DNA of 64,000 nt from a bacterium (lineage in GTDB: Bacteria > Cyanobacteriota > Vampirovibrionia > Gastranaerophilales > JBAXKC01): assembly GCA_037137535.1 (NCBI GenBank), contig JBAXKC010000007.1, forward strand, positions 1 through 64,000. The letters run 5' to 3'. Below are positions 2,149 through 60,999 of this stretch, piece by piece. A program made the position numbers and the translations under genes. The notes beneath the pieces were generated by a model. It worked only from the letters and a program-made list of their open reading frames with translations. It was not told where the DNA came from and did not search any database. Within the stretch, counting starts at the first letter, position 1. Every line of letters starts with the position of its first letter.

Positions 2149-2176
2149 TAAAAACATTATTATATGAGAATTTGCC
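2149..2176 (-). promoter_or_regulatory. GGCAA-N16-GTTTTTA upstream box
   Basis: Same bipartite motif and spacing as upstream of 43271 and 45660. Confidence 0.55.
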
Positions 2177-2436
2177 ATGCATGAAAAGCTCTTTTGTGAT
2201 TTAAAAGCCAAAATTCAGATATATCAAAAGATATCGAGATTATAACAATTTGAAGTATTGTTAACATTTCTTATTTTTCGCTAATGTTATTAATTATTTT
2301 GTTGTATAGGGAATAAGTATTTCATATTAAAATTACTTAAAAAAAAATGATATTTTAGTCAATTTTATTTATGTTTAGCTTTATTATGAATATAATAATT
2401 AAAGCCACAATGCTAAAGGAAAAGGAAAAACAGTTT

Positions 2437-3420
2437 ATGAAAATTGCAAAAGATCTGACTCAATTAATAGGCGGTACTCCGTTAGTTGCTTTGAATAAAT
2501 TAAATAAAGATGCAAAAGCTCAAGTTATAGTAAAACTTGAATATATGAATCCCGGTTGTTCCTGTAAAGATCATATTGCTATGAATATGATTAACAAAGC
2601 AGAACAGGAAGGGAAAATAAAAGCAGGAGTAACAACACTAATAGAAGCAACAAGCGGAAATACAGGCATTTCTCTTGCATATATATGTGCAATAAAGGGT
2701 TATGACCTCATAATTTGCATGCCTGAAAATAACAGTATAGAAAGAAGAATGTTGTTAAATGCATACGGTGCCAGAGTTGTGCTTACACCTGCAAACCTAA
2801 GAATGAAAGGTGCTGTTGATAAGGCACATGAAATTGAACAGGAAATGGAAAATGCTCATATTCTTTATCAATTCCAAAATCCTGCAAATCCTGAAATTCA
2901 TAGATTAGAAACTGCTGAAGAAATTTGGAATGATACAGACGGTAAAATAGATATAGTTGTAGCCGGCGTAGGTACAGGCGGAACAATTACAGGTATCGCT
3001 CAAAATTTAAAAGCAAAAAAAGCTTCTTTTCAGGCAATAGCTGTTGAACCAGCGAATAGTGCCGTTTTATCAGGCTGTGAGCCGGGTTGCCATAGAATTG
3101 AAGGAATAGGAACAGGATTTGTTCCCGATGTACTTGATAGAGATTTGATTGATGAGATATATCAAGTAGAAGACCATAACGCCATTGAAACAACAAGACA
3201 ACTTGCTAAAAAAGAAGGTATTTTGTGTGGAATTGCAGGTGGAGCTTCTACCTATGCAGCCTTAGAGCTTGCAAAACGTCCTGAAAACGAAGGCAAATTA
3301 ATTCTTGCAGTTTTAACTGACTCTGGTGAAAGATACCTTAGTACAAGACTTTTTGAAGAAACAAATACAGTTTATGCTTCTGAATTTAAAGTTAGCCCAA
3401 AAATCAAAGCATCTGTTTAA
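2437..3420 (+). CDS. cysK: Cysteine synthase A (O-acetylserine thiol-lyase)
   Basis: IGGTPLV, KLEYMNPGCSCKD (PLP lysine), EATSGNTG, GVGTGGT, DSGERYLS; start moved to MKIAKD after the AAGGA RBS. Confidence 0.93.
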   Translation: MKIAKDLTQLIGGTPLVALNKLNKDAKAQVIVKLEYMNPGCSCKDHIAMNMINKAEQEGKIKAGVTTLIEATSGNTGISLAYICAIKGYDLIICMPENNSIERRMLLNAYGARVVLTPANLRMKGAVDKAHEIEQEMENAHILYQFQNPANPEIHRLETAEEIWNDTDGKIDIVVAGVGTGGTITGIAQNLKAKKASFQAIAVEPANSAVLSGCEPGCHRIEGIGTGFVPDVLDRDLIDEIYQVEDHNAIETTRQLAKKEGILCGIAGGASTYAALELAKRPENEGKLILAVLTDSGERYLSTRLFEETNTVYASEFKVSPKIKASV

Positions 3421-3441
3421 TAAAACTAAAAATTTTCTTAT

Positions 3442-3476
3442 AAACGAGGATTAGTATTTAATGCAAATCCTCGTTT
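3442..3476 (+). terminator. cysK terminator
   Basis: AAACGAGGATT/AATCCTCGTTT stem followed by a T-run. Confidence 0.75.
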
Positions 3477-3626
3477 TTATATTAAATTTGAGTCGCTAAA
3501 TTATGAATAAGTTGAAACATGCCTGATTTAAGTATTTGAGCCAACTAAATTACGAGAATAAGAAAGCCTGCTGAATACTGCATTCATTTTTACAACATCA
3601 TTAATAGAAAAAAATTAAAACACAAA

Positions 3627-3658
3627 ACAACCCTATTATTAAAAAATAATAGGGTTGT
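3627..3658 (-). terminator. Terminator of 3696..4040
   Basis: Perfect 14-bp stem ACAACCCTATTATT/AATAATAGGGTTGT. Confidence 0.7.
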
Positions 3659-3695
3659 AAAAGATATTAAACAGTTATAAAAAACTATTTTTTAA

Positions 3696-4040
3696 TTAAA
3701 ATTTTGTTCTGTTGAGCTTTTCTCTAAGTTCTCTGAAACGTGCAACATCTTCCTGAGCTCTTGAACTTTCTCTAAAAAGAACTTGAGTTGAAGGATGTAC
3801 CATTTGAATAAAATCCATGTGAACTTCAAGGAAATTGTATTTTCTTGGAGCTCCGCCTGCTTTTCTGCTAATTATTTCGGCATCTGTAACAGCAAGAAAT
3901 CTTCTTTCTCTATCATTAAGGAGATCTGTTAACTCTCTGTTTGTATTAGTATATTTTGAAACGTGAACAGTTCCTTTAATTTCATGATCCATTGTAAGAA
4001 TTAATACTTCAACAGGAATTGTATCTATCTGCTTTGACAT
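3696..4040 (-). CDS. Small conserved protein, DUF6812-like
   Basis: IKGTVHV...LTDLLN..RRFLAVTDAEI pattern; AAAGGA RBS. Confidence 0.6.
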   Translation of the reverse strand: MSKQIDTIPVEVLILTMDHEIKGTVHVSKYTNTNRELTDLLNDRERRFLAVTDAEIISRKAGGAPRKYNFLEVHMDFIQMVHPSTQVLFRESSRAQEDVARFRELREKLNRTKF

Positions 4041-18064: not shown

Positions 18065-19666
18065 TTATTCTTCAATAACTAAAATATTACCTTTGATTGA
18101 ACCGTTTGATTGTGCTAAATAATCTTCAACAACCGCTCTTGAATTATCACCTGTGTAAACAACACCTGTCTGTTTATCAACGTTCTTTTCAAAGTTCTTT
18201 TTAACTTCATTAGGGACATGGTATTTTCCGTTTACAACATCTCTAGAACCTTGAATGATAGCGTTTGATGTTCCAAAATCATCCCAATTACCATGAGCAA
18301 CATGAGCAACCACTTTTAATCCGTCTTTCAATGCGCCCGGGATAGCATCTTTACCGAAATCATATTCCCCTTCTTCAGGATGATGCTCAGCAAGCGACTT
18401 TAAGAATTTAGGACTTGCAATATAAATAGCAGTATTCGCAAGGTATTCGCCTTTGTGCTTACCTTCTTTAATTAATCCCATTTCAGCGGCTTCTAAATTT
18501 TTTGGTTTTTCGATGAATTTTTGAATATTTTTATCATCATCCATTCCGATAATACCAAAACCACTTACATGATCAGGAGGAACAGGAATACCGACAATCA
18601 TAAGATCTGCTTCTTTAGCATTAAATTCATCAAGAGCTTCTGTTATCTCAAAGTCAGAGAAAGCATCTGCAGAGCAAATGATTGCAGGTTTATCAGCAAG
18701 TTTTGGATCTTTTTCAATAGCTTGATAAACTGCACCTGCATTTCCCGCTTTTCCTACTTCTTTACTGAATTCAGGCTTTGTATCAGGAGCTATAACTCCA
18801 CCTTTTACTCCCATAGCAAGACTGTTATCAATCAAGTGTGAACCATCTGCCATTGCAATTGAAGGTTTGCACATTTCATTAAGTGTAATATCATTTGTTC
18901 TTGTACCAAAACCACCAGCGGTTGAAAGGAAGTTGAACTTATCAAATTTTGCATGATTTTTTTGATATTGTTTTTCAAATGCGTTGAAAATACCTTTATC
19001 AAATGAACCTTCTACATCATTTTTCAATTCTTCTGCTTTATAGGAAGTTAAAACGACTAATTTCCCTGCAAAAGAGACTTGTTTTTTAGCTGAAGGCATA
19101 TTTAACTGAACATCATCAGTTTTAACTTCTGATCCTGCTTTACAAATTAAAACAATATTTTTCCCTGGTTTATTAGGATTAGGAATTTCAATTCTGATTG
19201 CTTTTCCTGAAGCACCTGTCATTGCTTTAACAGTTACTTTATTATTATCGGTTTTCTTTTTAGCAGTTGCTACAACATTACCGTCAATATCAGTAACATA
19301 GACTTTACGCTCTCTTGTTCTTGTATCTGTATCCCATTCAACTGTTAAAGGAGCATAAATTTTATCAGGTTTTTTCCCTGCCTTAGGCTCAGTCCAATCT
19401 TTTTCTTTTTTAGGCTCATATGAACGAACTTTAGATTGTCCAAGTTGAGTGTCGCCTTCAAATATATCAACAACTCTTGAATTATCACCATCACCTTTAA
19501 ATGATATTGTTGATAAAGCCATTGATTTCAAAGCATGAGCTCCTTGTGAACTTACTAATTCTTTTTGATTTACAGTTGCTTTATTTTCTACTTGTTCATG
19601 TTTCTTTTCTGCTTTAGCTGTCTTTTGAAAAAATGCTGAAGAAACATTTGAAATTTCAAATGCCAT
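18065..19666 (-). CDS. GlgC-like sugar-phosphate nucleotidyltransferase with a long N-terminal extension carrying ISFKG and VSFAG motifs
   Basis: AGGFGTR, KPSI, GNAGAV, FGII, FIEKP, DFGKDAIP, WDDFGT; about 240-aa non-enzymatic N-terminal region. Confidence 0.8.
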   Translation of the reverse strand: MAFEISNVSSAFFQKTAKAEKKHEQVENKATVNQKELVSSQGAHALKSMALSTISFKGDGDNSRVVDIFEGDTQLGQSKVRSYEPKKEKDWTEPKAGKKPDKIYAPLTVEWDTDTRTRERKVYVTDIDGNVVATAKKKTDNNKVTVKAMTGASGKAIRIEIPNPNKPGKNIVLICKAGSEVKTDDVQLNMPSAKKQVSFAGKLVVLTSYKAEELKNDVEGSFDKGIFNAFEKQYQKNHAKFDKFNFLSTAGGFGTRTNDITLNEMCKPSIAMADGSHLIDNSLAMGVKGGVIAPDTKPEFSKEVGKAGNAGAVYQAIEKDPKLADKPAIICSADAFSDFEITEALDEFNAKEADLMIVGIPVPPDHVSGFGIIGMDDDKNIQKFIEKPKNLEAAEMGLIKEGKHKGEYLANTAIYIASPKFLKSLAEHHPEEGEYDFGKDAIPGALKDGLKVVAHVAHGNWDDFGTSNAIIQGSRDVVNGKYHVPNEVKKNFEKNVDKQTGVVYTGDNSRAVVEDYLAQSNGSIKGNILVIEE

Positions 19667-19788
19667 AATTATATTTACCTTTCTAACTCTCGAATTTGAT
19701 ACTTACTCTCTATGGTAGTATTAAAGTCAAGACAAAAAAGAACATGACACTCATAAACAAAAATGTAACAAAATCTTAATATTTTTTT

Positions 19789-21483: not shown

Positions 21484-22266
21484 TTATGGATAAATTCTTG
21501 AAAATTGTGAAAAATATTGAGCTAATACATTCATAAGCAGCGGCATTGTTAAAATCAAAACAGCTATTCCTAAAACAGGCTTAAACATTGCACTTAACTG
21601 AAATACGTTAACCTGAGGAGCAGTTTTTGAAACTATACCTAAAATAACATCCATAGCAAGCGTTGCCATCAAGACGGGAGCTGAAAGCTGCATTCCTACA
21701 ATAATTACGTTAGAACTTACCATTATTAAATAATCAAGATTCATTAAAGTTTTTAATGGAAAAGCAACACCATATATCGGAAAAATCTCGAAACTTCGCT
21801 GAAAAGCCGCTATTAACCAGTATATGCCTCCTTCTTCAATAAAAATAAGAACAGACAAAAAGGTAAAGGCCTTACCGATAATAGAAGTTTGACCTCTTGA
21901 ACTCGGGTCAAACATTACAGCAGAAGATAATCCCATCTGCATGTTTATAATATCCCCTGCCGAGCCGACAGCTGACATAATAATAGTTCCAATAAGCCCA
22001 ATAATAGCCCCAACTCCGCTATTTAGCAAAATAGAAAGAAACATTGAATTATGAGGTGGAGGATTTGACGGGTTTAAAATACTAACAAAACAAATTGACA
22101 TTAGAAAAGTAAATCCCATTTTAAGCATGAAGGGAACGTCTTTACGGCTAAAAACAGGAGCTGTAGACACAAAACCAAGAAATCTTGCCATAATGTAAAG
22201 CCCTGCTTCAGTTTTCATACTGAATTCAGGAAAGTTTTTAAATACGCTAAGAAAATTTTCTAACAT
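21484..22266 (-). CDS. fliR: Type III export-gate protein FliR/SctT
   Basis: ARFLGFVSTAPVF, AGDIINMQMGLS..MFDP, GIVSKTAPQVNVF; start at MLENF, adjacent to the upstream stop. Confidence 0.92.
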   Translation of the reverse strand: MLENFLSVFKNFPEFSMKTEAGLYIMARFLGFVSTAPVFSRKDVPFMLKMGFTFLMSICFVSILNPSNPPPHNSMFLSILLNSGVGAIIGLIGTIIMSAVGSAGDIINMQMGLSSAVMFDPSSRGQTSIIGKAFTFLSVLIFIEEGGIYWLIAAFQRSFEIFPIYGVAFPLKTLMNLDYLIMVSSNVIIVGMQLSAPVLMATLAMDVILGIVSKTAPQVNVFQLSAMFKPVLGIAVLILTMPLLMNVLAQYFSQFSRIYP

Positions 22267-22267
22267 T

Positions 22268-22693
22268 TCACTTTGCCTTAAATTGTGGTGGTTGGTCAAT
22301 AATCATATTATCATTTAGCTTTAGCGGTTTTAACGGAGGCTTATCTATTTCTATCAAAGAAGCTTCATTATTCTTCTTTATCTGTTTTTGTTTAGTTATC
22401 AGTATTTTATAAATATACAAATTTGTTTTTGTCCAAACAATAAGATTAGTATCTTCCGCCTGCATTGCCGAAATAATCAACTCATAATCATCATTAAATA
22501 TTTTTGTATTTTGTTCAACCTTTAGAGCTTTTGCATTTCCAACTTCAATTTTTTTAAAGTTTTCAGAAAATTTTAAAATGTAAACATCACCTTTGTTAAT
22601 TTTAATTTGCTTAAAAACCTCACTTCTTACTGAGTTTAAAGGCATAAATATTGCTAAAAATAAGATTATAGCCGTAATAACAAAGTTTTTCAT
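22268..22693 (-). CDS. Secreted stand-alone pilus-secretin N-terminal domain (T2SS-T3SS_pil_N-like)
   Basis: Signal peptide, then KGDVYILKFSENFKKIEVGN...ELIISAMQAEDTNLIVWT, which aligns by eye to GKSQLIRFNEPVKRISLTN...ELLLNGKTAGLTSLIIWG of the secretin at 34365..35726. Confidence 0.75.
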   Translation of the reverse strand: MKNFVITAIILFLAIFMPLNSVRSEVFKQIKINKGDVYILKFSENFKKIEVGNAKALKVEQNTKIFNDDYELIISAMQAEDTNLIVWTKTNLYIYKILITKQKQIKKNNEASLIEIDKPPLKPLKLNDNMIIDQPPQFKAK

Positions 22694-22703
22694 TGTTTAC
22701 CTC

Positions 22704-23198: not shown

Positions 23199-23217
23199 TT
23201 TTAGTATTCTCCAAAAT

Positions 23218-23859: not shown

Positions 23860-23873
23860 ATTATCTCCTGAAA

Positions 23874-24281: not shown

Positions 24282-24292
24282 ATTTATTTTCC

Positions 24293-28098: not shown

Positions 28099-28121
28099 CC
28101 GGATAGCAATTATTATTTTGG

Positions 28122-28145
28122 AATGCGTTATATAGATAACGCATT
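28122..28145. promoter_or_regulatory. Perfect hairpin between the kinase and the 28160 gene (terminator or operator)
   Basis: AATGCGTTAT-ATAG-ATAACGCATT. Confidence 0.5.
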
Positions 28146-39363: not shown

Positions 39364-39498
39364 AATAAAAGACCTTATCCAAACTCACTTTTATATTTAA
39401 TTATATAAATACATATTATTTTTATCAATCACGAATAAATGCTTGACTATATTTTATGTTAGAGGTTTAATATAGATAATTAAATATTAATTTAGTTC

Positions 39499-41525: not shown

Positions 41526-42471
41526 AATAATTAAAAAGACGTTACCATCTTCCTGTAAATATATCGGGGATGATACTGCTTTTTTATCGGATAAAGGAAT
41601 TATAATAACTCAAGACACGCTTGTAGAAGATGTTCATTTCAGATTAACAACTATTAGCCCCTTTCAACTCGGCTATAAATCCATCGCTGTAAACTTAAGC
41701 GACATTGCTGCAGGTGCAGCAATTGCTAAATATTGCCTTATTTCTCTTTCCTTACCTAAAAACATTAATAATGCTTTTATAGAAGGATTTTATAAAGGCG
41801 TAAAGGCTATATGTGAGTTTTTTAACGTTGATGTAATAGGTGGAGATATTACAGGGGCTGAAAAATTAACTGTAAGCATTACGGCAATAGGCTATACTGA
41901 AGGGGTACAACCTGCTTCACGCAAAAATGCAAAAGAAAATGATATTGTCTTTGTAACAGGTCATTTTGGCTCAAGCGCAGCCGGATTATGGTGTTTAGAA
42001 AATAATTACAATTCTGATAAATTTATAAAAAGCCACCTAATGCCAATGCCAAGATTGACAGAAGCCAGAAAAATCCTTGAAAAATCAAAACATCCTTTGA
42101 CTTTAATGGATGCAAGCGATGGACTTGCTGATGCTTTAGCAAAAATCTCTTCAATGAGCGAAGTATCTATGGAAATAAACGCTATAGATATTCCAATTGA
42201 CAGCGATATAAAAAATATTGCGGGAAAAGCCAATATAAATTCATATTACGACTGGATTTTATTTGGTGGAGAAGACTATGAACTTGTAGGGACAATGCCC
42301 GAAAGTTTATTTAATGAATTAAATCATAATGAATTAAACATTAAAAAAATCGGGAAAGTAATAAAAAAAGAACTTAACTCAACTGTTTTTGTCCAATTAA
42401 ATGATAAAACCCTTGAAATTAATATGGAAACGCTAAATCAACAAACTTTTGATCATTTTAAAGAGGATTAA
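41503..42471 (+). CDS. thiL: Thiamine-monophosphate kinase
   Basis: IGDDTA, VEDVHF, NLSDIAA, GGD, MDASDGL, GGEDYEL. Confidence 0.95.
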   Translation: MKELQFIEIIKKTLPSSCKYIGDDTAFLSDKGIIITQDTLVEDVHFRLTTISPFQLGYKSIAVNLSDIAAGAAIAKYCLISLSLPKNINNAFIEGFYKGVKAICEFFNVDVIGGDITGAEKLTVSITAIGYTEGVQPASRKNAKENDIVFVTGHFGSSAAGLWCLENNYNSDKFIKSHLMPMPRLTEARKILEKSKHPLTLMDASDGLADALAKISSMSEVSMEINAIDIPIDSDIKNIAGKANINSYYDWILFGGEDYELVGTMPESLFNELNHNELNIKKIGKVIKKELNSTVFVQLNDKTLEINMETLNQQTFDHFKED

Positions 42472-42473
42472 AA

Positions 42474-43157
42474 ATGAAAATTTCTGCAATTATACCCGCA
42501 GGTGGCTCTGGAAACAGGTACAGCAAAGAGAAGAATAAGCTTTTAGAACTTTTATCGGGGAAAGAAGTTTTAATAACAACTATTGAAGCTATTTTAACCT
42601 CTGATTATATTGACAATATTATAATTCCCTCCTATGAAGGAATTATTCCCTTTTTAAACAAAGCCTTACAGACTTTTCCTCATAAAGACAAAATTCAAAT
42701 CATTAATGGAGGAGACACAAGGCAAGCATCTGTTTATAATGCATTGGAGTTTTTAAATAAAACAACTAAACCTGATTATATTGTGATACATGATGGAGCA
42801 AGACCTTTAATTACAAACGATATTATCAATTCAGTAATCAAAAAAGCCATTGAAACTGATGCGGCAATCGTTGCAGTCCCTGTAAAAGATACGATTAAAA
42901 GAGCTAATAGCGAAAATTTAGTTATAGAAACGCCTAACAGAGAAGAATTATGGCAAATTCAAACCCCACAGGTCTTTAATTTTGATAAATTAATTAAGGC
43001 TCATGAAAAATACAAACAGGAAAATTTTACAGATGATGCAGCACTTATGGAAAAAGAAGGCTATAACGTGTTTCTTGTAAAAGGCTCTTATTCAAATATA
43101 AAAATAACTACCCCCGAAGATATTATTATTGCTGAGGCGTTATTGGCAATTCAGTAA
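42474..43157 (+). CDS. ispD: 2-C-methyl-D-erythritol 4-phosphate cytidylyltransferase
   Basis: AGGSGNR, GGDTRQASV, IHDGARP, QTPQVF, NIKITTPED. Confidence 0.95.
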   Translation: MKISAIIPAGGSGNRYSKEKNKLLELLSGKEVLITTIEAILTSDYIDNIIIPSYEGIIPFLNKALQTFPHKDKIQIINGGDTRQASVYNALEFLNKTTKPDYIVIHDGARPLITNDIINSVIKKAIETDAAIVAVPVKDTIKRANSENLVIETPNREELWQIQTPQVFNFDKLIKAHEKYKQENFTDDAALMEKEGYNVFLVKGSYSNIKITTPEDIIIAEALLAIQ

Positions 43158-43206
43158 AATTCAATTATAATACTTATTCAAATATCTAATAAAATAAGAG
43201 CAATAA

Positions 43207-43234
43207 GTCAATTTTTTCATGCGCTGTGTTTTTA
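43207..43234 (+). promoter_or_regulatory. GTCAA-N16-GTTTTTA upstream box
   Basis: 36 nt upstream of the 43271 ATG; identical elements upstream of 45660. Confidence 0.55.
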
Positions 43235-43270
43235 TATATATAATATATCGTTTAAAGTAGAGGATAAATA

Positions 43271-45598
43271 ATGAACACTAATAATAGTGTAAATTTTTTT
43301 TCAACAAATAATCTATATAAACTACCTGAAAAACAACTTTCTCAGGTAGCTATAAAAACTACTGAGCTTGAAAACGATAAATTTGAATTATCAACAGCCT
43401 CTAAACAACCTGAAAATAAAAAAAATAATAATTTATTAATGTATGCGACTATTTTATCAACAGCAGCAGCAACTATTCTTGGGGCAATCGTCTTACATAA
43501 AAATGGACTTTTGGCAGAAGTAAAAACTCAGTTATCTTCTAAAGAGACTCATCTTAATGAAATAAATCAAAAAGTTAAAGAAACCTTAAAAAATTCACAA
43601 GCACTTGAAAATGAATTAGCAAAATTAAAAGAACAAGCTCTTAAATCTGCTGATGAGGCTTTAAATAAAACTGTTGAAACATTACAAAAAGAAAAACAGG
43701 CTCTTGAAACAAAAGCCCAATTATTAGAACAACAACTCAAGCAAGCAAAAAATAGTAACACAGCAGAAGTTTCTGAACTTAAACAACAACTTAACATCCT
43801 AAATACCGAAAAACAAAAACTTGAGCAAAATGTTAGAAACCTTGTAGCTGAATCAAAAAGCAAAGACGGCATTATCAATTCACTTCAACAAGATATTTCA
43901 CAAATAAAAACTGCTTCCGATGAAGCTACTAAAAAACTTGCTGACTTGCAAAAATCAGCTTTAGAAGCTGCTGATCAAAAGTTAAATAAAGCTGTTGAAA
44001 TTTTACAAAAAGAAAAACAAGCTCTTGAAGAAAAAGCAAATACACTAGAGCAACAACTTCAGCAAGCAAAAAACAGTAACACAGCAGAAGTTTCTGAGCT
44101 TAACAAACAACTTAACAGTCTAAAAACCGAAAAACAAAAACTTGAACAAAATGTCAATAAACTTGTAACTGAAACAAAAAGCAAAGACGGCATTATCAGT
44201 TCACTTCAACAAAAAATTGAACAAATAAAAACGGAGTCCAATGAGGCTACTCAAAAACTTGTTAAAATAAATCAAGCCGCTTTAGAAGCTTCTGATAAAA
44301 ACTTGCAGAAGGCTGTTACAGATTTAAAAACACAAAAAGCAGAAATTGATAAATTAAATAAAGAATTAGAAGACTCTCTTAGAACTCAATCTTCAAATTC
44401 TGCTGAAATTACAAACCTAAAAGCTAAGGTTAAAGAATTAGAAAACAAAAATATAGAATTAAATAAAAATATTGGAAAAGTTGAAAATGAAATAATCTCA
44501 GGCATTCAATCCAAACTTTCTAAAGTAGAACATCCTGCCGTTGGCAAACAAGTAAAAATAAATCTTGAAAAAGACGGTGAATTTTTCATCGGAAGAGAAG
44601 CTTCACCTAGCTGTATAGAAATAACAGACAGCGGTAAAGTAAGTCGAACTCATTTAAAATTAAATATAAAAAATGGAAAAGTTGAAATAACTGATGTTTC
44701 TGCAAATGGAACACTATTAAACGGTAACATTATTCAAAAAAACAAACCAATAACGATTAACAAGTTAGATGAAATTCAAATAGACAATACTATCTATTTA
44801 TTTGACGGTAAAGAGCTTAAAACCTTAACAAATGATGCTGAAACATACAGAGAAATGTTTAATTCAGGAATTAAAGATCTTCCCTTTTATCAAGGTCAGA
44901 ATGGCAATTGCTATGCTTTAAGCGGCTTTGATTCTTTAAGAGCTATGCCAGATGCCAAATGTTATCTTGCAAACATGATTTCTAAAGAAAAAAATGGAGA
45001 TATAATTGTAAACTTTGCAGGAGTAAAAGAAGGAGCAGGAAAAAAAATAATCATAAAAGCGGCGGAACTACCTTCAATACTTAATGACCCTGAGGCAGTA
45101 ATATCCTCTAATGGTTTAAAAATAATTGAACGAGCTTATGGGCATCTTATAAAGGCTGAAAGACAATCTTTAAACCCTAATAGTAATAAGACAATGTTCT
45201 TAATGTCAGGCGGTAGACCTGGGGACTTTATGGAAGCAATTGTACCAGGAATAAAACATCTTATTTTCTGGGGAAATGATATTGGCGATATGTCTCGTGA
45301 AGCAGAGCACCTCCCTTATGCCCTAAATATGCTTAAAAGTTTTTCCGCCAATAAAGAAAGAATGGCTTTAACAGCTGCAACCAGAAGAGGAGCAGCAGGT
45401 GGACATGAGGTGATACTTAAAACAATTGGAAATTTACAAATAGCACAAACACATGCATATAGCATAAAAAATGTAGACTTGGCCAATCAAAAGATTTTAC
45501 TTGCAAATCCTTGGGATTCTAGTGAAAAGGCTTATATTGCCTTTGATGAATTCTTTAAATTATTTGGAACTATCGACAGTATAGCTATGAAAAAATAG
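43271..45598 (+). CDS. TM + duplicated coiled coil + FHA + calpain-like cysteine protease (effector-like)
   Basis: FHA: FIGR...VSRTH...TDVSANGT; protease: QGQNGNCY...HAYSI...ANPW. Confidence 0.8.
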   Translation: MNTNNSVNFFSTNNLYKLPEKQLSQVAIKTTELENDKFELSTASKQPENKKNNNLLMYATILSTAAATILGAIVLHKNGLLAEVKTQLSSKETHLNEINQKVKETLKNSQALENELAKLKEQALKSADEALNKTVETLQKEKQALETKAQLLEQQLKQAKNSNTAEVSELKQQLNILNTEKQKLEQNVRNLVAESKSKDGIINSLQQDISQIKTASDEATKKLADLQKSALEAADQKLNKAVEILQKEKQALEEKANTLEQQLQQAKNSNTAEVSELNKQLNSLKTEKQKLEQNVNKLVTETKSKDGIISSLQQKIEQIKTESNEATQKLVKINQAALEASDKNLQKAVTDLKTQKAEIDKLNKELEDSLRTQSSNSAEITNLKAKVKELENKNIELNKNIGKVENEIISGIQSKLSKVEHPAVGKQVKINLEKDGEFFIGREASPSCIEITDSGKVSRTHLKLNIKNGKVEITDVSANGTLLNGNIIQKNKPITINKLDEIQIDNTIYLFDGKELKTLTNDAETYREMFNSGIKDLPFYQGQNGNCYALSGFDSLRAMPDAKCYLANMISKEKNGDIIVNFAGVKEGAGKKIIIKAAELPSILNDPEAVISSNGLKIIERAYGHLIKAERQSLNPNSNKTMFLMSGGRPGDFMEAIVPGIKHLIFWGNDIGDMSREAEHLPYALNMLKSFSANKERMALTAATRRGAAGGHEVILKTIGNLQIAQTHAYSIKNVDLANQKILLANPWDSSEKAYIAFDEFFKLFGTIDSIAMKK
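43637..44278 (+). repeat. 321-nt (107-aa) tandem duplication in the coiled coil, with a degenerate third copy from 44279
   Basis: Units start at 43637, 43958 and 44279; AACACAGCAGAAGTTTCTGA recurs 321 nt apart. Confidence 0.9.
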
Positions 45599-45625
45599 TC
45601 AATAATTCATTTCAAATTGTTTTTA
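45598..45625 (+). promoter_or_regulatory. GTCAA-N16-GTTTTTA upstream box
   Basis: 34 nt upstream of the 45660 ATG. Confidence 0.55.
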
Positions 45626-45659
45626 AATATATATAGGCGAATTATATAAAGGAGAAACA

Positions 45660-45887
45660 ATGTCAAACGAACTTTTCAATATAGTTAATACGATTGACAA
45701 ATATATCGGCAAAAATAAAATGACTTGTTATAAATTCAACTATCCTTGCGAATATAAACGTTGTGAAGTGGCTAAATCTATTGATATTGTTGATGAGTAT
45801 AAAACTTTAAAAGAAACAGTTGAGAATTTATCCTTTCAATCTTCTGATCTCGCTTACAGCTATGTAGAAGTAAGAAACAGACGATAA
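45660..45887 (+). CDS. Small hypothetical protein with three Cys
   Basis: AAGGAG RBS; terminator follows. Confidence 0.7.
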   Translation: MSNELFNIVNTIDKYIGKNKMTCYKFNYPCEYKRCEVAKSIDIVDEYKTLKETVENLSFQSSDLAYSYVEVRNRR

Positions 45888-45907
45888 ATATTTTAATAAT
45901 ATAAACT

Positions 45908-45932
45908 AAAGCGGTTATTTAAGCCGCTTTTT
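45908..45932 (+). terminator. Intrinsic terminator
   Basis: AAAGCGGTT/AGCCGCTTT plus T-run. Confidence 0.65.
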
Positions 45933-46033
45933 GTATTTCTTGCAGATTTTGTAGAAAGTTCTCTTTTATCGTAATATAATTTTATTACAAGCTCATATTA
46001 CTGAGTATTTATTAATAAAATGAATTGAAAATT

Positions 46034-48049
46034 ATGGTTGAAGCTGCAATATCATCATATTTACCGCTATATAGAAAATACAGACCGCAAAAATTTAGTG
46101 ATCTTGTCGGACAGGAAGCAGTAACTAAAATTCTTTCTTCTGCAATAGAATTAAACAAAGTTTCCCATGCATACCTTTTTACAGGTTCAAGAGGAACAGG
46201 AAAAACTTCTTCCGCAAGGATTTTTGCAAAGTCTTTAAATTGCGAAAAAGGCCCGACTCCAAGTCCATGTGGAGTTTGCGCAAGTTGCACGGATATAACC
46301 GCAGGCAGAGCTGTTGATGTAATAGAAATCGATGCCGCAAGCAATCGTAGCGTTGAACATGCCAGAAACATTCTTGAAAAAGTACAATTTGCACCAGTTG
46401 CAGGCAAATATAAAGTCTATATCATAGATGAAGTGCATATGCTTTCAAAAGAAGCCTTTAATACTTTATTAAAAACGCTGGAAGAACCGCCTAAAAATTT
46501 GGTATTTATACTTGCAACGACCGAAACTCATAAAGTTCTTGAAACTATCGTATCTCGTTGTCAAAGGTTTGATTTTAAAAGAATTAAAACCGAGCTGATC
46601 GTCGGACTTCTACAAGAAATCTCAAAAATTGAAAATATTAACATAAACGATGAAGCCTTATTTATAATTGCAAGAAAAGCTCAAGGAGGTTTAAGGGATG
46701 CTCTTAGCCTTTTAGATCAGGTAAGTATTTTATCCTTGACAGGTAAGCAAATAACCGAAGAAGATGTCCTTAAAATGTTGGGAAGCCTTTCTGAAGAAAC
46801 GCTTTATGAAATAACTCAGGCTCTTGCGGAAAAGAACATTCAAAGTTTGCTTAAATTTTTAGATTATCTTTACGAAAAAGGAAATGAACCTGTTCAGATA
46901 ATCCGTGAACTTATAGGCTATTTTAGAAATCTTATGCTTGTGAAAACTTCAGATAATTATTCTGAAATTAAAGAATTGGTATTAAGCGGAGAAGAGTTTT
47001 ATTCAAAGCTGAAAACTCAATCAGCTATCTTTGAAACTATTGAAATTACACAAATTATTGAAAAACTTGCAGAATGTGAAAGAGCGTTAAAAAACTCATC
47101 ACAACAGGGGTTATGGATTGAAACAGGCTTAATATCTATATGTCACAGGCATGACATTCAAGTTATAAAAAATCTTGAAGAAAGAATAGAAAAACTTGAG
47201 AGTCTTATTTTATCTGGCAATATTCCTACTCAAAGAGTAAATACAACTTATGAAAAGCCGATTACAAGCTTTACTGCTCCAATCGTAAAAGAAATTGAAC
47301 TGCCTGAAAAAACTAAAGAACCTGCAATTACAACAGAAGTAAAAGCTCCAGTTATTCAAACTACTCCAAAAATTGAACCCGCAAGACAAGAAGAACCAAA
47401 ACCGATACTGATAAAAGAAGAAAAACCACAAGAAACTCAAAGTGCCCAAAGTGTTTCCTCAATTACTTCTGTCTCAAAAGAAGATTTAATAGCAAACTGG
47501 AAGCTCTTATTGAAAAATATTACAAGCCCACCCACAATGAGCTTGTTTATGCAGCTTTCGACCCCCGTTGAAATAACTGCTGATAGAATTATTGTTACTT
47601 TTAAAGATGAAACATGGGTAAAGAAAATTCAGGATGAAGGCAAAGCAGAAATGCTTGAAAAAGCTGCTATTGCTTTATTTGGAAAAGCTCCTAGGCTTAT
47701 TATCAGAACACCTATGCCTGAAGATAAAGCAAATATAAAAGCTGATAAAATATCTATAAGCTCACAACCTGTTACAGAAGTACAAAAGCCGAAGCCTGCT
47801 CCTCAACAAGCAGCACCTGCTGTAGAAACGCATACTTATGATCAAATAACTTCTGATATTGTTGAAGAACGCACCGAAAAAATTGTTAAAAGATCCGATG
47901 ACGTGAAAAATGTATCTTCCTCTTCTGATGATCTGACGGATGACGATTTAGAAGAGATACAAACAACCGCCCCGCAGATTGTTAGAACAAATCTTCCCGA
48001 GACGGCTGTACATCTTTTAAATGTGTTTAACGGTAAACTTATTGATTAA
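46034..48049 (+). CDS. dnaX: DNA polymerase III subunit gamma/tau
   Basis: LYRKYRPQ, GSRGTGKT, EIDAASN, IIDEVHML, SRCQ. Confidence 0.97.
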   Translation: MVEAAISSYLPLYRKYRPQKFSDLVGQEAVTKILSSAIELNKVSHAYLFTGSRGTGKTSSARIFAKSLNCEKGPTPSPCGVCASCTDITAGRAVDVIEIDAASNRSVEHARNILEKVQFAPVAGKYKVYIIDEVHMLSKEAFNTLLKTLEEPPKNLVFILATTETHKVLETIVSRCQRFDFKRIKTELIVGLLQEISKIENININDEALFIIARKAQGGLRDALSLLDQVSILSLTGKQITEEDVLKMLGSLSEETLYEITQALAEKNIQSLLKFLDYLYEKGNEPVQIIRELIGYFRNLMLVKTSDNYSEIKELVLSGEEFYSKLKTQSAIFETIEITQIIEKLAECERALKNSSQQGLWIETGLISICHRHDIQVIKNLEERIEKLESLILSGNIPTQRVNTTYEKPITSFTAPIVKEIELPEKTKEPAITTEVKAPVIQTTPKIEPARQEEPKPILIKEEKPQETQSAQSVSSITSVSKEDLIANWKLLLKNITSPPTMSLFMQLSTPVEITADRIIVTFKDETWVKKIQDEGKAEMLEKAAIALFGKAPRLIIRTPMPEDKANIKADKISISSQPVTEVQKPKPAPQQAAPAVETHTYDQITSDIVEERTEKIVKRSDDVKNVSSSSDDLTDDDLEEIQTTAPQIVRTNLPETAVHLLNVFNGKLID

Positions 48050-54323: not shown

Positions 54324-54866
54324 TTATCTTCTTCCTTGTTGATTATTTTGCCTGAAGTCTCTCATGTTTTGGTGTTGTTCTTGTCTAAACGCTTGTCTTC
54401 CTTGCTGATTGTTTTGTCTGAAATCTCTCATATTTTGGTGTTGATCTTGTCTAAACTCTTGTCTTCCCTGCTGATTATTTTGTCTGAAATCTTGCATGTT
54501 TTGGTGTTGATCTTGTCTGAACTCTTGTCTTCCCTGTTGATTATTTTGTCTAAAATCTTGCATGTTTTGGTGTTGTTCTTGTCTGAACTCTTGCCTTCCC
54601 TGTTGATTATTTTGTCTGAAATCTTGCATGTTTTGGTGTTGTTCTTGTCTGAATTGTTGTTTTTCCAGTTGATTATTCTGTTTATATTCTTCTCGTTTTT
54701 GATTCATCTCTTCTCGATGTTGCATGTATTTTTGTTGTCTTTCTTCGGGGGATAAATTGGGTCTGTCTTGATTATAAGACGGAGAATCAGAGCTTACCTG
54801 ACTAAATGCAGAATTTCCAACTAGTAATAATGAACAGACAAAAGCCGCCGCTAATAACTTTTTCAT
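54324..54866 (-). CDS. Secreted Gln-rich 22-aa tandem-repeat protein
   Basis: MKKLLAAAFVCSLLLVGNSAFS signal; five RQ[ED]QHQNM[QR]DFRQNNQQGRQ[EA]F units. Confidence 0.85.
   Translation of the reverse strand: MKKLLAAAFVCSLLLVGNSAFSQVSSDSPSYNQDRPNLSPEERQQKYMQHREEMNQKREEYKQNNQLEKQQFRQEQHQNMQDFRQNNQQGRQEFRQEQHQNMQDFRQNNQQGRQEFRQDQHQNMQDFRQNNQQGRQEFRQDQHQNMRDFRQNNQQGRQAFRQEQHQNMRDFRQNNQQGRR
54327..54650 (-). repeat. 66-nt coding tandem repeat, about 5 copies
   Basis: Recurrent TTGTCTGAAATCTTGCATGTTTTGGTGTTG on the plus strand. Confidence 0.92.
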
Positions 54867-54930
54867 GTAAATCCCTTTCATGCTAATCTTTTGCAAATAA
54901 TTTCAAACAAACACCGAAGCAGATAATAAC

Positions 54931-54973
54931 TTTATAAGGTTGTAAATAATTTTACGACTTACAACCCTATAAA
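54931..54973 (-). terminator. Hairpin after the Spy/CpxP gene
   Basis: TTTATAAGGTTGTAA/TTACAACCCTATAAA. Confidence 0.55.
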
Positions 54974-54998
54974 AGTTTATACCCATTATAAAAAATTT

Positions 54999-55502
54999 TT
55001 AATCTTTATTGAAATTATGATGTTCTCCTTTTTCATCATGATACTTTTTCATCTCCGCCTTACGCTCTTCTCTGAATTTAGCAAATTGAACTTTTTGATC
55101 AGGGGTCAATATTGCTTCAAATTGCTTCATATTTTCTTCCCTGACTTGTTGCACCTGTTTTCTCATTGCTCTTACTTTTTCTTGCTGTTGAGCTATATCT
55201 TGAGAAGGAGCCTTTTGTTCTCTCATTTGTTTTAATTTTTGATATTCTGCTTTTAAATTATCAATTAGAGGCTTGATTTTACCTTTAGAAGCTTCTCTCA
55301 TCGCTTTTGCTTTTTGGGCTTGATCAGGTGTTAAATTCAAATAATCTTTAATTTTTGGTCTTTGACATTCTTTATTAAACGTAGATTGAGCTTGAGTATT
55401 ATCGCTAATTAATAATTTATCAACATTTTGAGCAAAAGCTCCACTTGAAAATGCAAATAAAGACAAAGCAATTAAAGTTGTTGAAATATAATGTTTTTTC
55501 AT
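54999..55502 (-). CDS. Spy/CpxP-family periplasmic chaperone
   Basis: Signal peptide; two LTxxQ motifs (LNLTPDQ, ILTPDQ). Confidence 0.85.
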   Translation of the reverse strand: MKKHYISTTLIALSLFAFSSGAFAQNVDKLLISDNTQAQSTFNKECQRPKIKDYLNLTPDQAQKAKAMREASKGKIKPLIDNLKAEYQKLKQMREQKAPSQDIAQQQEKVRAMRKQVQQVREENMKQFEAILTPDQKVQFAKFREERKAEMKKYHDEKGEHHNFNKD

Positions 55503-55523
55503 GAGTTTGAACCCTTTCGTTAA

Positions 55524-56033
55524 TTATAGAAATTCTTTTAACTCTTCTTTAAGCAATCTTCTGGCTTTAAAGAGTCTTGATTTTATTGTGCCTGCAGGGC
55601 AATTTAATTTTTTAGCTATAGCATCATGTGTTAATTCTTCTATGTCATGAAGAATGACAACTTCCTTGAATTTGGGAGGTAACAAATTGATTGCATTAAT
55701 TATAGTTTGATGTCTTTCATTCAAAAGTGCTTTCTGTAAAGGGATGGGCTTATTATCCTTTATCTGATTAAACATTTCTTCATCAGAGCAAGCAAAAGCT
55801 TTCTTACTTTTAGTAAAATCCTTACATGTGTTTATGGTTACAGTTTTTATCCATCCGAGCAAAGAAGTGCTATTTTCTACTTTATGAAAATTTTTCCATG
55901 TTTTTATATAGACTGTTTGCTCAATGTCATCAACTTCATCATCATCAATCGAGTTTTTAAAAAAACCTTTTATAGTAGACCGAACTCGACCGTTATATTC
56001 ATTGATTACATTTTTTATCGGGGTATCTTTCAT
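55524..56033 (-). CDS. ECF sigma factor
   Basis: DDIEQTVYIKTW, GWIKTVTINTCKD, LPPKFKEVVIL..IAKKLNCPAGTIKSRLFKAR. Confidence 0.92.
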   Translation of the reverse strand: MKDTPIKNVINEYNGRVRSTIKGFFKNSIDDDEVDDIEQTVYIKTWKNFHKVENSTSLLGWIKTVTINTCKDFTKSKKAFACSDEEMFNQIKDNKPIPLQKALLNERHQTIINAINLLPPKFKEVVILHDIEELTHDAIAKKLNCPAGTIKSRLFKARRLLKEELKEFL

Positions 56034-56040
56034 ATAAGCC

Positions 56041-56406
56041 TTATTCTATCTCCAATAATCCATATTGATCAGTTGGTAAGCCCATTGCTTCAACAACAGA
56101 TGTATCATTAACAGATAACTCCGAGGACTTCGTATGTTCAATTGCAATTTTATTTACAGAAAAATTATCAAATGCGAAAAAACATAGAAAAATAAGAATT
56201 AATGATGCAACAGCCTGTAATTGAACAGAAGGAATTTTTTTTGATTTTGATTTATTAAGATATGGTTTTACTTCTTTAACAAGAGAAGCTATTTTTTGAT
56301 CTTCCTCATATTCTTTCCTGCACTCTTCGCAGTCTTTGATATGAGAGAACAAAACTTCTTCACTCTGAAATAAGTATAACGATTCATATCTATTACATTT
56401 TCCCAT
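56041..56406 (-). CDS. Zinc-binding anti-sigma factor (ZAS)
   Basis: HIKDCEEC (HxxxCxxC) followed by one TM. Confidence 0.8.
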   Translation of the reverse strand: MGKCNRYESLYLFQSEEVLFSHIKDCEECRKEYEEDQKIASLVKEVKPYLNKSKSKKIPSVQLQAVASLILIFLCFFAFDNFSVNKIAIEHTKSSELSVNDTSVVEAMGLPTDQYGLLEIE

Positions 56407-58603: not shown

Positions 58604-59188
58604 TTAAGTTAGTCTGTAATCTATTCCGTTAAAGCGATTTGAAGCCGTAGTAAGATCATTTTTTATGTAAGTTTCAATCGCTTCTGCGGCTCCATTTACA
58701 ACATTTGCTAAGAGAGCTTTTTCTGAAACGGCAAAAGGCTCAAGGACAAAATTTTTCCTTGCAGCTCCACCGGGATCAGGGCCGATTCCAACTTTTAATC
58801 GATGAAAATTGTTAAATCCGCCAAAAGAACCTATTATTGACTTTATACCGTTATGACCACCGTCACTTCCGCTATTTCTAAATCTTAATCTACCAAGGTC
58901 GAGCGCTATATCATCAAAAACAACAAATATATTTTCTTTTTGCAATTTATACCAGTTTATAATTTTAACAATACTTTCCCCCGAAAGATTCATAAAAGTC
59001 ATTGGCTCAAGAATAAAGACTTCTTCCCCGCAAATATTTCCCTTGCCGACTAAAGCATTGAATTTAGGCTCAAATCTCAAAGATATAGCATGTTTTGAGG
59101 CTAACGTCTCAACAGTCATAAAACCTATGTTATGTCTAGTGTTTTTATACTTATCACCCGGATTGCCGAGTCCTATTATCACTTTCAC
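58604..59188 (-). CDS. pth: Peptidyl-tRNA hydrolase
   Basis: GLGNPG..Y..TRHNIGF, TFMNLSG, GGHNGIKS. Confidence 0.97.
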   Translation of the reverse strand: MKVIIGLGNPGDKYKNTRHNIGFMTVETLASKHAISLRFEPKFNALVGKGNICGEEVFILEPMTFMNLSGESIVKIINWYKLQKENIFVVFDDIALDLGRLRFRNSGSDGGHNGIKSIIGSFGGFNNFHRLKVGIGPDPGGAARKNFVLEPFAVSEKALLANVVNGAAEAIETYIKNDLTTASNRFNGIDYRLT

Positions 59189-59420
59189 TTTTAGTTCTAC
59201 TCCTATAGGGTAACTTGATGAATAAATTTTTTGTCTTTTTATTATATTCTCTGTGATAGGAACTATTTTAATTTTATGTTATATTTTTATTGATAATTTA
59301 ATATATCTAATTGAATAATAACTATTAAAATTACAAATCTGCGATTAAAGAGCAATTACCCGATAAAACTATTAAATCAAAAAATAATATAATTAAAAGA
59401 GCAAACAATTGGAGGTTAAA

Positions 59421-59996
59421 ATGTCTACTGATAATCAAATTTCTACCGACACACCTATAAGCGAAAGCAGCACAAGGCTTGTAGATTTCCTTGAAACATC
59501 AAATCTGCACAAAAAAGATTTTGCCGAAATGATAGGTGTTACTCTTTCTTATGTTTATAGCCTTATTGACAGCACTATTTCATTCTCGACAAGAACCACA
59601 ACACTTGAACGTATTGCGGTTATTATGGGGATAAATCCTTCTGAGTTTCCTGAATACAAATCATCAGAAGAGCCTAAACTTGTTGATCCGGGAGTACAGT
59701 TTCTGAAACAGAAACAAAGAGAACTTGGATTAAGCAATGTACAATTACTAAAACGTTTCCCAAGACAAAAAAGACTTGAAATGGTTGATCTTTGGAGAGG
59801 TGCAGAGCCATTACCACTTGATTGGAATGACCTTGCCGCTGTTGCAGAAGTTTTAGAATTGTCTTCAAAAGACATCTATCCATATTGGCAAGCAAGACTA
59901 CAACAATATCTTGTAGTTGGAGGTATTGACCTTTTTGCTAATACAGGATTAATTAATGCGATGTTTGAGGGAGCAAAAAGCTATTTAAAAATATAG
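59421..59996 (+). CDS. XRE-like helix-turn-helix protein
   Basis: LHKKDFAEMIGVTLSYVYSL; GGAGG RBS. Confidence 0.65.
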   Translation: MSTDNQISTDTPISESSTRLVDFLETSNLHKKDFAEMIGVTLSYVYSLIDSTISFSTRTTTLERIAVIMGINPSEFPEYKSSEEPKLVDPGVQFLKQKQRELGLSNVQLLKRFPRQKRLEMVDLWRGAEPLPLDWNDLAAVAEVLELSSKDIYPYWQARLQQYLVVGGIDLFANTGLINAMFEGAKSYLKI

Positions 59997-60123
59997 ACTT
60001 TTTACGCATTATTTTTACTCAAAATTGCATTAAGATAGAAGTATCTTGAATCAAACCGATCTTAAAAGTGAAATACTGATATTCTCAGATTAACGGATAA
60101 GGTCGGTTTTTTCTATCCTCTAA

Positions 60124-60156
60124 CTAAAACCTCACTATTAATTAGTGAGGTTTTAG
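60124..60156. terminator. Terminator between convergent genes
   Basis: Perfect 14-bp stem CTAAAACCTCACTA/TAGTGAGGTTTTAG. Confidence 0.75.
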
Positions 60157-60179
60157 ACTGTTATATTTATAATTTTTTA

Positions 60180-60836
60180 TTAAAACAAATTAAATATAGA
60201 TGCAACGCTGACTAATGCAACATCAGAAATTAAATTTGCAGCAGTCCAAAAAACATGTGAAGCACCTGGAATAATGCATAGAACTAAAAATAAAAGAAGA
60301 TATCCATTATTTCCAATTTTTTCATAGATTTTATTAACGGCAGGAATCAAATATTTAGCAATATGACTACCCTCCAGCGGTGGTAAAGGAATTAAAGTAA
60401 ATAATGCTAATACGGCATTTGCCTGACTACCTGTCTGAAAACAAAATAACAGGTTCTTTTTTACATGTACAGGAATAAAAGATAAATTATTTTTCAAACA
60501 AACTATATATAATAAAGAAAAGACAAAAACCATAACCAAACTCGCAAGTGGTCCTGCTAAGCTGACAAGGGCTTTGCTGTATTTATGCTTATATGTTTTG
60601 TTCTCCATATCAAAAGAATCCCAAAACATTCCAAATAAAACCAGTAGAATAAGCGACATATAATTCAAATAATAAACAGGATTAAAAGAAAAATAATCTT
60701 TTCTTTTAATGGCTAAATCAGTTTGTTTATAGGAAACAGCAGCATGAGCTAATTGATGAATATAAGCCGAAATTATGACTATAACAATCCAAGTAATATA
60801 AAGTTGAAAATCTGTAAATAAATATTGTATAAACAT
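60180..60836 (-). CDS. Site-2 protease (M50)-like membrane protein with degenerate active site
   Basis: HQLAH, VSLAGPLA, FTLIPLPPLEGS. Confidence 0.75.
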   Translation of the reverse strand: MFIQYLFTDFQLYITWIVIVIISAYIHQLAHAAVSYKQTDLAIKRKDYFSFNPVYYLNYMSLILLVLFGMFWDSFDMENKTYKHKYSKALVSLAGPLASLVMVFVFSLLYIVCLKNNLSFIPVHVKKNLLFCFQTGSQANAVLALFTLIPLPPLEGSHIAKYLIPAVNKIYEKIGNNGYLLLFLVLCIIPGASHVFWTAANLISDVALVSVASIFNLF

Positions 60837-60972
60837 TTTTAAATTCCTATCCTTTAAACCTATTATAATCTCTAAACAATAGATTTATACCAACTATTTT
60901 AACGAAAATTTAATAAGTTTCAAAATAATGTAAAATATTTAAAAAAACATGTATAAAAATTTCAAAAGGACT

Positions 60973-60999
60973 ATCAATATTTTTTATTTTTGGTTTTTA
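60973..60999 (+). promoter_or_regulatory. ATCAA-N15-GTTTTTA upstream box (variant)
   Basis: 36 nt upstream of the 61036 start. Confidence 0.4.

Follow-up and report, generated by a model that had tools for sequence, protein, structure and literature searches.

In Pseudomonas syringae and its relatives the hrp box has the consensus GGAACC-N15/16-CCACNNA, and HrpL is an extracytoplasmic function (ECF) sigma factor linked to an injectisome gene cluster. The Feds and CiaI of Campylobacter jejuni are sigma-28-dependent non-flagellar proteins that are co-expressed with flagellar genes, some of them being exported via the flagellar apparatus. Mechanistically nearest to the element described here is the FliA attack-phase regulon of Bdellovibrio bacteriovorus, in which a flagellar-type sigma factor acts as a global regulator; according to Karunker et al. 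2013 (PMC3627812), 140 promoters were mapped, 92 of them with TTAAG-N16-CCGATA, and many non-flagellar or uncharacterised genes are driven in mono- and polycistronic units. We analysed a two-part upstream box, RGCAATT-N13-TGTTTTTATA, in a window of 64,000 nucleotides (nt; contig JBAXKC010000007.1, positions 1 to 64,000), in the Gastranaerophilales genome assembly to which it belongs (GCA_037137535.1; 2.95 Mb, 31 % GC, 81 contigs) and in related genomes. The box is probably the promoter of an undescribed alternative sigma-70-family class that occurs in part of the class Vampirovibrionia (Melainabacteria).

Set beside the Bdellovibrio regulon, the system is alike in regulon size, in the short -35 and long -10 elements at fixed spacing and in having a FliA-like sigma candidate. 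It differs in its consensus, in the presence of a separate sigma-28-type motif, in a candidate sigma that scores below the FliA/WhiG cut-off and in that its promoters are known from sequence alone. The sequence-only reading that first described the box likened it to the hrp box, and at the functional level the comparison holds, since in both cases dispersed, fast-evolving effector genes would stand under one alternative sigma promoter with -35 and -10 blocks at a fixed distance. It fails at the level of sequence, the consensus found here not being that of the hrp box; moreover, none of the three ECF sigma factors stands out, the best candidate being FliA-like and encoded in the flhB operon rather than an ECF factor of the HrpL type, which makes flagellar export the link, with secretion of the products hypothetical. 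Unlike the Feds and CiaI, a handful of genes under the standard sigma-28 consensus, the genes concerned here number approximately 150 and carry a different box, export again being hypothetical. A targeted literature search on sigma factors and promoters of Melainabacteria found nothing relevant on transcription control, and the word 'sigma' is absent from Soo et al. 2014 (PMC4040986).

The sequence-only reading had defined the box as G[TG]CAA-N16-GTTTTTA, with exact copies at 2149-2176 (minus strand), 43207-43234 (plus) and 45598-45625 (plus), and had placed four of its six sites, variants included, 34-40 nt before the start codon. All three copies were recovered, against 0.10 matches expected from dinucleotide-preserving shuffles of the window, and three matches were reached in 0 of 100 shuffles. 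The distance from the end of GTTTTTA to the start codon was 40 nt (start at 2108), 36 nt (43271) and 34 nt (45660), within the range given there, and each of these start codons has a Shine-Dalgarno-like sequence. Across the genome the same pattern occurred 26 times at N16 as opposed to 3, 5, 5 and 4 times at N14, N15, N17 and N18, respectively; 21 of the 26 N16 matches were intergenic and 16 lay no more than 100 nt upstream of a start on the same strand.

Gene calls (2620) came from a simple open reading frame (ORF) and codon-usage caller rather than a curated annotation, and 1707 of the genes had an upstream gap. An unbiased scan of these 1707 upstream regions for pairs of 4-mers and 5-mers at spacings of 10-23, the gapped motif discovery that the sequence-only reading had recommended, placed GCAA-N16-GTTTT first (62 versus 3.8 expected, z 26.7). 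A 44-column weight matrix, built on genome-wide sites and iterated over the same regions, corrected the form of the box whilst leaving its two-part nature intact: in its refined form the box reads RGCAATT-N13-TGTTTTTATA and continues with some five A/T, a T and a purine, its first base being A, G or C in the iterated matrix. Independently of the matrix, GCAATT-Nx-TGTTTTTATA had 29 occurrences at N13 and two at N12, with none at N9-11 or N14-19, and a variant -10 element, aCTTTATA, was present in the same register (12 versus about 2). Matrix scores were bimodal with a trough near 13 bits. There were 188 matches of at least 15 bits, of which 178 were intergenic (intergenic DNA being 13.5 % of the genome) and for 161 a start on the same strand lay no more than 200 nt away. 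Ten simulations of the intergenic DNA with a second-order Markov model produced 10-22 matches compared with 176 in the real sequence. The roughly 150-160 oriented sites had a median distance of 48 nt to the start codon. Both the intergenic, gene-oriented placement at a short distance from start codons and the fixed distance between the blocks, whose starts are ~20 nt apart and thus compatible with -35/-10 contacts, are as expected of a promoter.

The edges of the box are blurred in this 31 % GC genome and were better resolved in G114, a relative from another family whose sampled loci have 54-65 % GC. This genome held 58 exact copies of GCAAT-N15-GTTTTTAT and none of the reversed control. Thirty of its sites shared a conserved (a/g)GGCAATT(c), then, some seven bases ahead of the -10 block, A-T-T, then TTGTTTTTATT and finally an AT-rich run, which ended in T (23 of 30) followed by A or G 7-8 nt past GTTTTTA, with background composition beyond. 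The caution that AT-rich DNA inflates such matches is therefore refuted twice over, by the 58 copies in a genome of ~60 % GC and by the spacing test (29 at N13, 0 at nine other spacings). The strict pattern was present in 31 of 31 genomes of the same order, at 3-70 copies each versus 0-1 for the reversed control. In a sample of 201 genomes from the class, it was found in every genome of five further families (f2 48/48, f3 2/2, f6 19/19, f10 25/25 and f12 5/5), and families f4, f5, f7, f8 and f9 were at control level (0-3 copies). Sixty-seven genomes of other cyanobacterial families, photosynthetic ones included, were likewise at control level (0-3), with one at 6 owing to a repeated element. 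The reversed control gave 0-2 per genome across samples; the sampled genomes are kin, and their counts are not independent.

Read as a promoter, the box would place RGCAATT at about -35 to -29 (GCAATT at -34 to -29) and the long element TGTTTTTAT at about -15 to -7, with transcription starting at the purine 7-8 nt past GTTTTTA. Given that start, we read its geometry as normal for the sigma-70 family, but with a T where RpoD-type promoters have an invariant A at -11. It would drive ~130-160 mostly single-gene units, ~198 of 2620 genes, encoding lineage-specific proteins with N/Q/S/T-rich N-termini. The putative alternative-sigma effector regulon that the sequence-only reading had envisaged fits the spacing, orientation, start distance, separate canonical promoter class, conservation across GC contents and family-poor genes.

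The box is separate from the other promoter classes of the genome. None of the 37 tRNA genes has one (none reaches 12 bits, the best scoring 11.5), whilst many have cTTGACa-N17-TAtAAT; the canonical TTGACA-N17-TATAAT promoter, found on tRNA genes where the box is absent, was accordingly rejected as an identity for it. TTGAC-N17-19-TAnnWT preceded 38 of 1707 genes, two of which are box genes. The housekeeping promoter type is thus canonical in this genome, because the tRNA genes carry TTGACA/TATAAT, in agreement with the RpoD orthologue, whose recognition residues are unchanged. In the window, all remaining genes with an upstream gap stay below 12 bits (maximum 11.3), so that the earlier statement that housekeeping genes lack an equivalent holds. 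Nor does the box match the sigma-28 (FliA) class III flagellar promoter, TAAA-N15-GCCGATAA: a sigma-28-type pair, TAAA-N16-CCGAT, forms a separately enriched, weaker class (14 versus 1.6) that precedes 16 other genes. A sigma-54 promoter (-24 GG/-12 GC, ten bases apart) was also rejected, the matrix having no conserved GC 12 nt past the GG of GGCAA. Neither class of promoter was evident in the last 130 nt upstream of the flagellin genes, apart from a 16.9-bit box at C44:18385.

We identified 151 genes, from the 1707 with an upstream gap, behind a box of at least 15 bits, and ~198 of 2620 when likely operon partners were included. Of the 86 with boxes of at least 20 bits, 75 were single-gene units. 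The spacers vary, and gene duplication does not account for the spread of the box, since 82 of the 151 box genes are without a paralogue in the genome. A Pfam scan covering 150 of the 151 found no family above cut-off for 67 of the 86 best box proteins; NCBIfam families (E<=1e-5) were assigned to 5 of 75 top box proteins as opposed to 36 of 55 non-box window genes, this test omitting the 11 of the 86 with strong Pfam matches. The families that were found included Zeta_toxin, an ADP-ribosyltransferase exoenzyme with a gp5-type spike domain, CHAP, class 3 and GDSL lipases, dual-specificity phosphatases, peptidase M16, PpiC rotamase, EF-hand and FHA, together with two PPPDE-like peptidases below cut-off and small DNA-binding proteins (RHH twice, MerR and a GntR-repeat protein). 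In G114, 2 of 19 scanned ORFs had a family, Peptidase_M23 and CHAP, both behind Gly/Pro/Ser-rich N-termini. The few box proteins with domains thus look like enzyme types common among secreted toxins and effectors. The N-termini of box proteins in general, which have an excess of Q, N, P, S and T and a deficit of hydrophobic residues, do not look like Sec signals. For this uncultured group of gut and freshwater bacteria, the box makes 5-7 % of the genes, namely those that annotation cannot name, accessible from sequence; it allows one putatively co-regulated set to be listed for any genome of the group and leaves a shortlist of sigma factors that can be tested.

The sequence-only reading had further linked the box to an xxFxG tag in the encoded proteins and recommended a genome-wide test of this link. 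The association is real: the strict tag [VILMT][SNT]F.G within the first 80 residues was carried by 14 of 151 box proteins, compared with 47 of 1556 others (odds ratio 3.3, p 6e-4). It is also weak, the majority of box genes lacking the tag and the majority of tagged genes lacking the box. A looser pattern, [SNT]F[TKGNSRA][GSA], gave 25 of 86 versus 111 of 1502, but was written post hoc, after the data had been seen.

Searching for the sigma factor that might read the box, we identified nine sigma genes by Pfam region 2 (RpoD, three RpoD-like, SigF, FliA and three ECF) and, through region 4 and NCBIfam, three extra divergent sigma-70-family genes missed by Pfam Sigma70_r2 at E<=0.001. Two of the latter, sX1 and sX2, are FliA-like paralogues with 45 % identity. 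Both belong to the sigma-70 family (TIGR02937; 69 and 67 bits), and both fall below the curated cut-off of the FliA/WhiG family (TIGR02479, 189.6 bits), at 77.9 and 56.1 bits compared with 247 bits for the true FliA (C23:27572-28414), so that they are FliA-like only. The sX1 gene is co-oriented with flhB and starts 32 nt downstream of it, and 79 of 80 related loci had flhB directly upstream of sX1. In the box families, all genomes sampled had an sX1 match (E<=1e-51, 53-75 % identity), nearly always with a second paralogue (37-48 %), whereas f5, f7 and f8, flagellated families without the box, had a single sX copy (E 1e-25 to 1e-40) equidistant from sX1 and sX2. No sX was found in f4 and f9, families almost without FlhA (1/47 and 0/2 genomes). 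The sX1 proteins of the box families have, at GC contents from 31 % to ~60 %, the same two putative recognition segments, and the copies of non-box families have different ones, which is what an invariant box predicts. We tentatively take sX1 as the cognate sigma, a candidacy with a little under an even chance of being correct; sX2 is a poor second candidate and improbable in this role. Autoregulation was considered and rejected, FliA having only a weak box (16.6 bits at 139 nt). Other genomes supplied two instances, both unconvincing: a box ~740 nt upstream of a clade B sigma gene, where it lies antisense to another gene, and a box divergent from a clade A sigma gene.

A rather unlikely alternative is that the promoter is read by one of three RpoD-like clades, A to C, restricted to box genomes. 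Among the 68 sigma proteins placed in a tree, drawn from 6 box genomes and 5 without the box, clade C was present in 6/6, B in 5/6 and A in 4/6 of the former and all three in 0/5 of the latter, a distribution as confounded with phylogeny as that of sX1. The extended -10 is a feature of RpoD-type sigmas, and the TG at -15/-14 resembles one. Clade B has an altered region 4.2 helix (T[KR]ECIRQTE versus TRERIRQIE) and an altered region 2.4, but the latter varies among box genomes despite an invariant -10 box. Clade A is marked by SKERIRQIE and, in region 2.4, by a T-to-I change, yet it was not found in G114, the genome with most boxes. Clade C retains the canonical -35 recognition residues, yet the -35 of the box is not TTGACA. 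The divergent FliA-like pair is the better fit, the correlation being one within a single clade. Two further leads were dropped: the clade B sigma gene adjoins an FlhA-like fragment here, an arrangement not kept in the other 14 sigma loci searched, and the box does not track FlhA, as most box families have two FHIPEP matches but so does the boxless f5.

We consider it distinctly unlikely that GCAATT is an activator site overlapping the -35 region, with the unusual -10 read by the housekeeping or a group-2 sigma as in a class II activator promoter. Such an arrangement could treat the TG and T-rich -10 as a weak extended -10, and would suit the several small DNA-binding proteins in the regulon and the extra symmetry (CATGCAAT ... 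GTTGCATG) of one promoter conserved in gut relatives, but the box halves are neither palindrome nor direct repeat, their spacing is fixed to the base in roughly 30 sites with almost no flexibility, a T occupies the position of the RpoD-type invariant A at -11 if the start is rightly placed, and the canonical promoters of the genome look quite different. That the box is no promoter, but either the conserved terminus of a cassette, repeated or mobile, or something that AT-rich DNA produces by chance, is very improbable: mostly single-gene units scattered over the genome, each with its own box, would suit it, but conservation does not extend to the spacer or the flanks of the blocks, most of the genes are unrelated to one another (82 of 151 without paralogue), the sites point to start codons at 20-60 nt, and the reversed control gives 0-2 per genome whilst a ~60 % GC genome holds 58 copies.

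Several points weigh against an alternative sigma promoter read by sX1. The weight matrix was trained on sites that it was later used to count, a circularity from which the regular-expression and spacing tests are free, and the genes it was applied to come from a simple ORF caller. About 10-22 matches are expected by chance, and members scoring 15-20 bits include ordinary housekeeping genes (e.g. those for HisRS and an ABC ATPase), some being expected false positives. Amongst 11 loci encoding homologues of the product of gene 159-2108, the box was clear at one and weak at one. Genomes described as without the box are those, amongst the sampled ones, that one strict pattern did not match. The assignment to sX is confounded with phylogeny, box families also sharing the RpoD-like clades A-C, and a single-copy positional orthologue of sX1 lies behind flhB in the non-box genome G038. 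No strong box was found upstream of the sigma genes of this genome. The sequencing runs listed as containing DNA of window positions 41000-48000 are six DNA runs from four studies and none is RNA, and promoter activity and the start site are thus inferred.

One box promoter was kept base for base in four genera of gut genomes, where it precedes a gene for a protein of ~173 amino acids (aa). It reads ACATGCAATTC-N5-AGTTGCATGTTTTTATATA and contains the inverted repeat noted above. Paralogues of this protein in the present genome have boxes of 27.7 bits, and at least one other, at C9:24182, has a sigma-28-type promoter instead. The family is specific to Melainabacteria, with conserved N- and C-terminal helices and a variable middle. 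A search of a protein atlas with this box-driven hairpin family, here and in gut relatives, returned only Melainabacteria hypothetical proteins. An AlphaFold2 model (mean predicted local distance difference test score, pLDDT, 60) consisted of two long helices, 2-58 and 134-193; a Foldseek comparison with the PDB gave no match at E<=0.001, the best being the V-type ATPase D subunit (0.09), and the fold is uninformative.

A more speculative proposal, which we regard as doubtful, is that the box regulon comprises the substrates of a flagellum-derived export machine. It starts from the position of sX1 in the flhB operon, through which building the export gate would switch on the regulon: assembly of the gate would activate ~150 genes whose products, with their disordered N-termini, would exit through it. 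Most Gastranaerophilales genomes have only a subset of flagellar genes according to Soo et al. 2014 (PMC4040986). No flagellin was found in five gut genomes of f2, each 99 % complete (G153, G005, G030, G070 and G150), and each has two FHIPEP matches, both sX copies and the box; three of them (G153, G005 and G030) have 2 rod/hook-type genes each as opposed to 8 here and 7 in G114. Across the f2 sample, FHIPEP matches (mostly two) and the box were present in 48 of 48 genomes and both sX copies in 47 of 48, and flhB precedes sX1 in G153, the one f2 genome checked. The proposal rests on this retention of FHIPEP, sX and the box in flagellin-less gut genomes and on a second, compact basal-body/export cluster in the present genome (C13:60-10372, minus strand; locus L211). 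If it is correct, what was once a flagellum serves gut Gastranaerophilaceae solely for secretion and has an effector regulon of its own, a change that parallels the way in which the injectisome arose. It raises the question of whether the partial flagellar gene sets of gut lineages, as reported by Soo et al. 2014, amount to a working export system.

The coordinates of the window sites and of the genes discussed are collected in Table 1.

Table 1. Box promoters, rejected and marginal sites, and associated genes (window positions unless a contig, C, is named)
Feature	Position	Strand	Details
Predicted box promoter A	2139..2182	-	-35 GGCAAAT 2170-2176; -10 TGTTTTTATA 2147-2156; 23.7 bits
Box A inferred transcription start	~2141	-	inferred
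Gene downstream of box A	159..2108	-	649-aa membrane protein, two VSFxG motifs, no Pfam/NCBIfam family
Predicted box promoter B	43201..43244	+	-35 GTCAATT 43207-43213; -10 TGTTTTTATA 43227-43236; 25.1 bits
Box B inferred transcription start	~43242	+	inferred
Gene downstream of box B	43271..45598	+	775 aa; long coiled coil, FHA domain, C-terminal domain without known family
Predicted box promoter C	45592..45635	+	-35 GTCAATA 45598-45604; -10 TGTTTTTAAA 45618-45627; 26.5 bits
Box C inferred transcription start	~45633	+	inferred
Gene downstream of box C	45660..45887	+	75-aa orphan, four cysteines, no xxFxG tag
Marginal candidate	60973..60999	+	ATCAA-N15-GTTTTTA before gene 61045-62271; spacing one base short
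Not a member	28105..28131	+	before gene 28160-29635; perfect AGCAATT; -10 half GCGTTATATA
Not a member	19722..19748	-	GTCAT-N15-GACTTTA, upstream of gene 18065-19666
Housekeeping-type promoter	39441..39473	+	GCTTGACT-N17-TAATAT before tRNA-Leu (39499); textbook local example
Extra sigma genes (L197-L199)	C1:313261-313896; C21:48383-49069; C48:8295-8873		sX2; sX1; ECF-like
RpoD-like clade genes, this genome	C17:806-1834; C21:29157-30233; C34:1751-2644		clade C; clade A; clade B
~173-aa family loci, gut relatives	L102-L106		
~173-aa family loci, this genome	C15:44882-45466; C15:46512-47096; C62:8061-8420; C9:24182-24511		

The three sites with N15 that the sequence-only reading had added as variants fared poorly, scoring 1.7, -0.2 and 2.8 bits compared with 23.7-26.5 for the exact sites. 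Upstream of gene 18065-19666 the best score was 1.7 bits at fixed and 2.5 at variable spacing; the site before gene 28160-29635 was excluded by its -10 half (-2.4 bits), its best fixed-spacing score being -0.2 bits. The third is marginal, with 2.8 bits at fixed spacing and 11.1 bits at a spacing one base shorter. The accompanying statement that all five tagged genes of the window have a box thus applies to two, with one further marginal case and two without, whilst the third valid box precedes the untagged 75-aa gene.

Homologues of the 649-aa protein behind box A were found in 26 of 31 genomes of the order at 27-36 % identity. In the 775-aa protein behind box B the FHA domain spans residues 440-504 (42.2 bits). 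The C-terminal third past it, where Pfam gave no match, has the motifs QGQNGNCYALSG, HAYSI and NPWD, which seem to resemble the Cys, His and Asn blocks found in cysteine peptidases of the papain or calpain type. The first G of the box C -35 element is the final base of the stop codon of this upstream gene.

The window also contains a flagellar export cluster (21484-25525, minus strand) comprising a fliN/Y-like gene, fliO, fliP, fliQ, an unknown gene of 141 aa and fliR. The fliN/Y-like product (402-410 aa) has a SpaO/YscQ-like C-terminus, and FliQ, at 164 aa, is about twice the usual length. The flhB gene lies outside this cluster, on C21, followed by sX1. The C13 cluster consists of flgF-, flgG-, flgB- and flgC-like genes, a lytic transglycosylase, fliE, a weak fliF, an unknown gene, fliH, a second flhA (670 bits, below the FlhA cut-off) and fliI. 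FHIPEP matches in the genome number five, with C-terminal-domain paralogues on C34, C13, C60, C2 and C27.

A sigma-28-type promoter, TAAAGTTAATCTTTGCGATAGCCGATA, was identified at 36726-36752 (minus strand), ending 31 nt before the start of cpaB (36694), the first gene of a Tad/Flp pilus operon (29640-36694). Given this promoter before cpaB, the pilus may be co-regulated with late flagellar genes. Elsewhere in the window, the region 54324-56406 (minus strand) resembles an envelope-stress module: a 121-aa ORF comes first, then an ECF sigma gene (55524-56033), which is followed by a gene for a 167-aa signal-peptide protein with two LTPDQ motifs and then by one for a secreted repeat protein with units of the form QQGRQEFRQ[ED]QHQNM[QR]DFRQNN.

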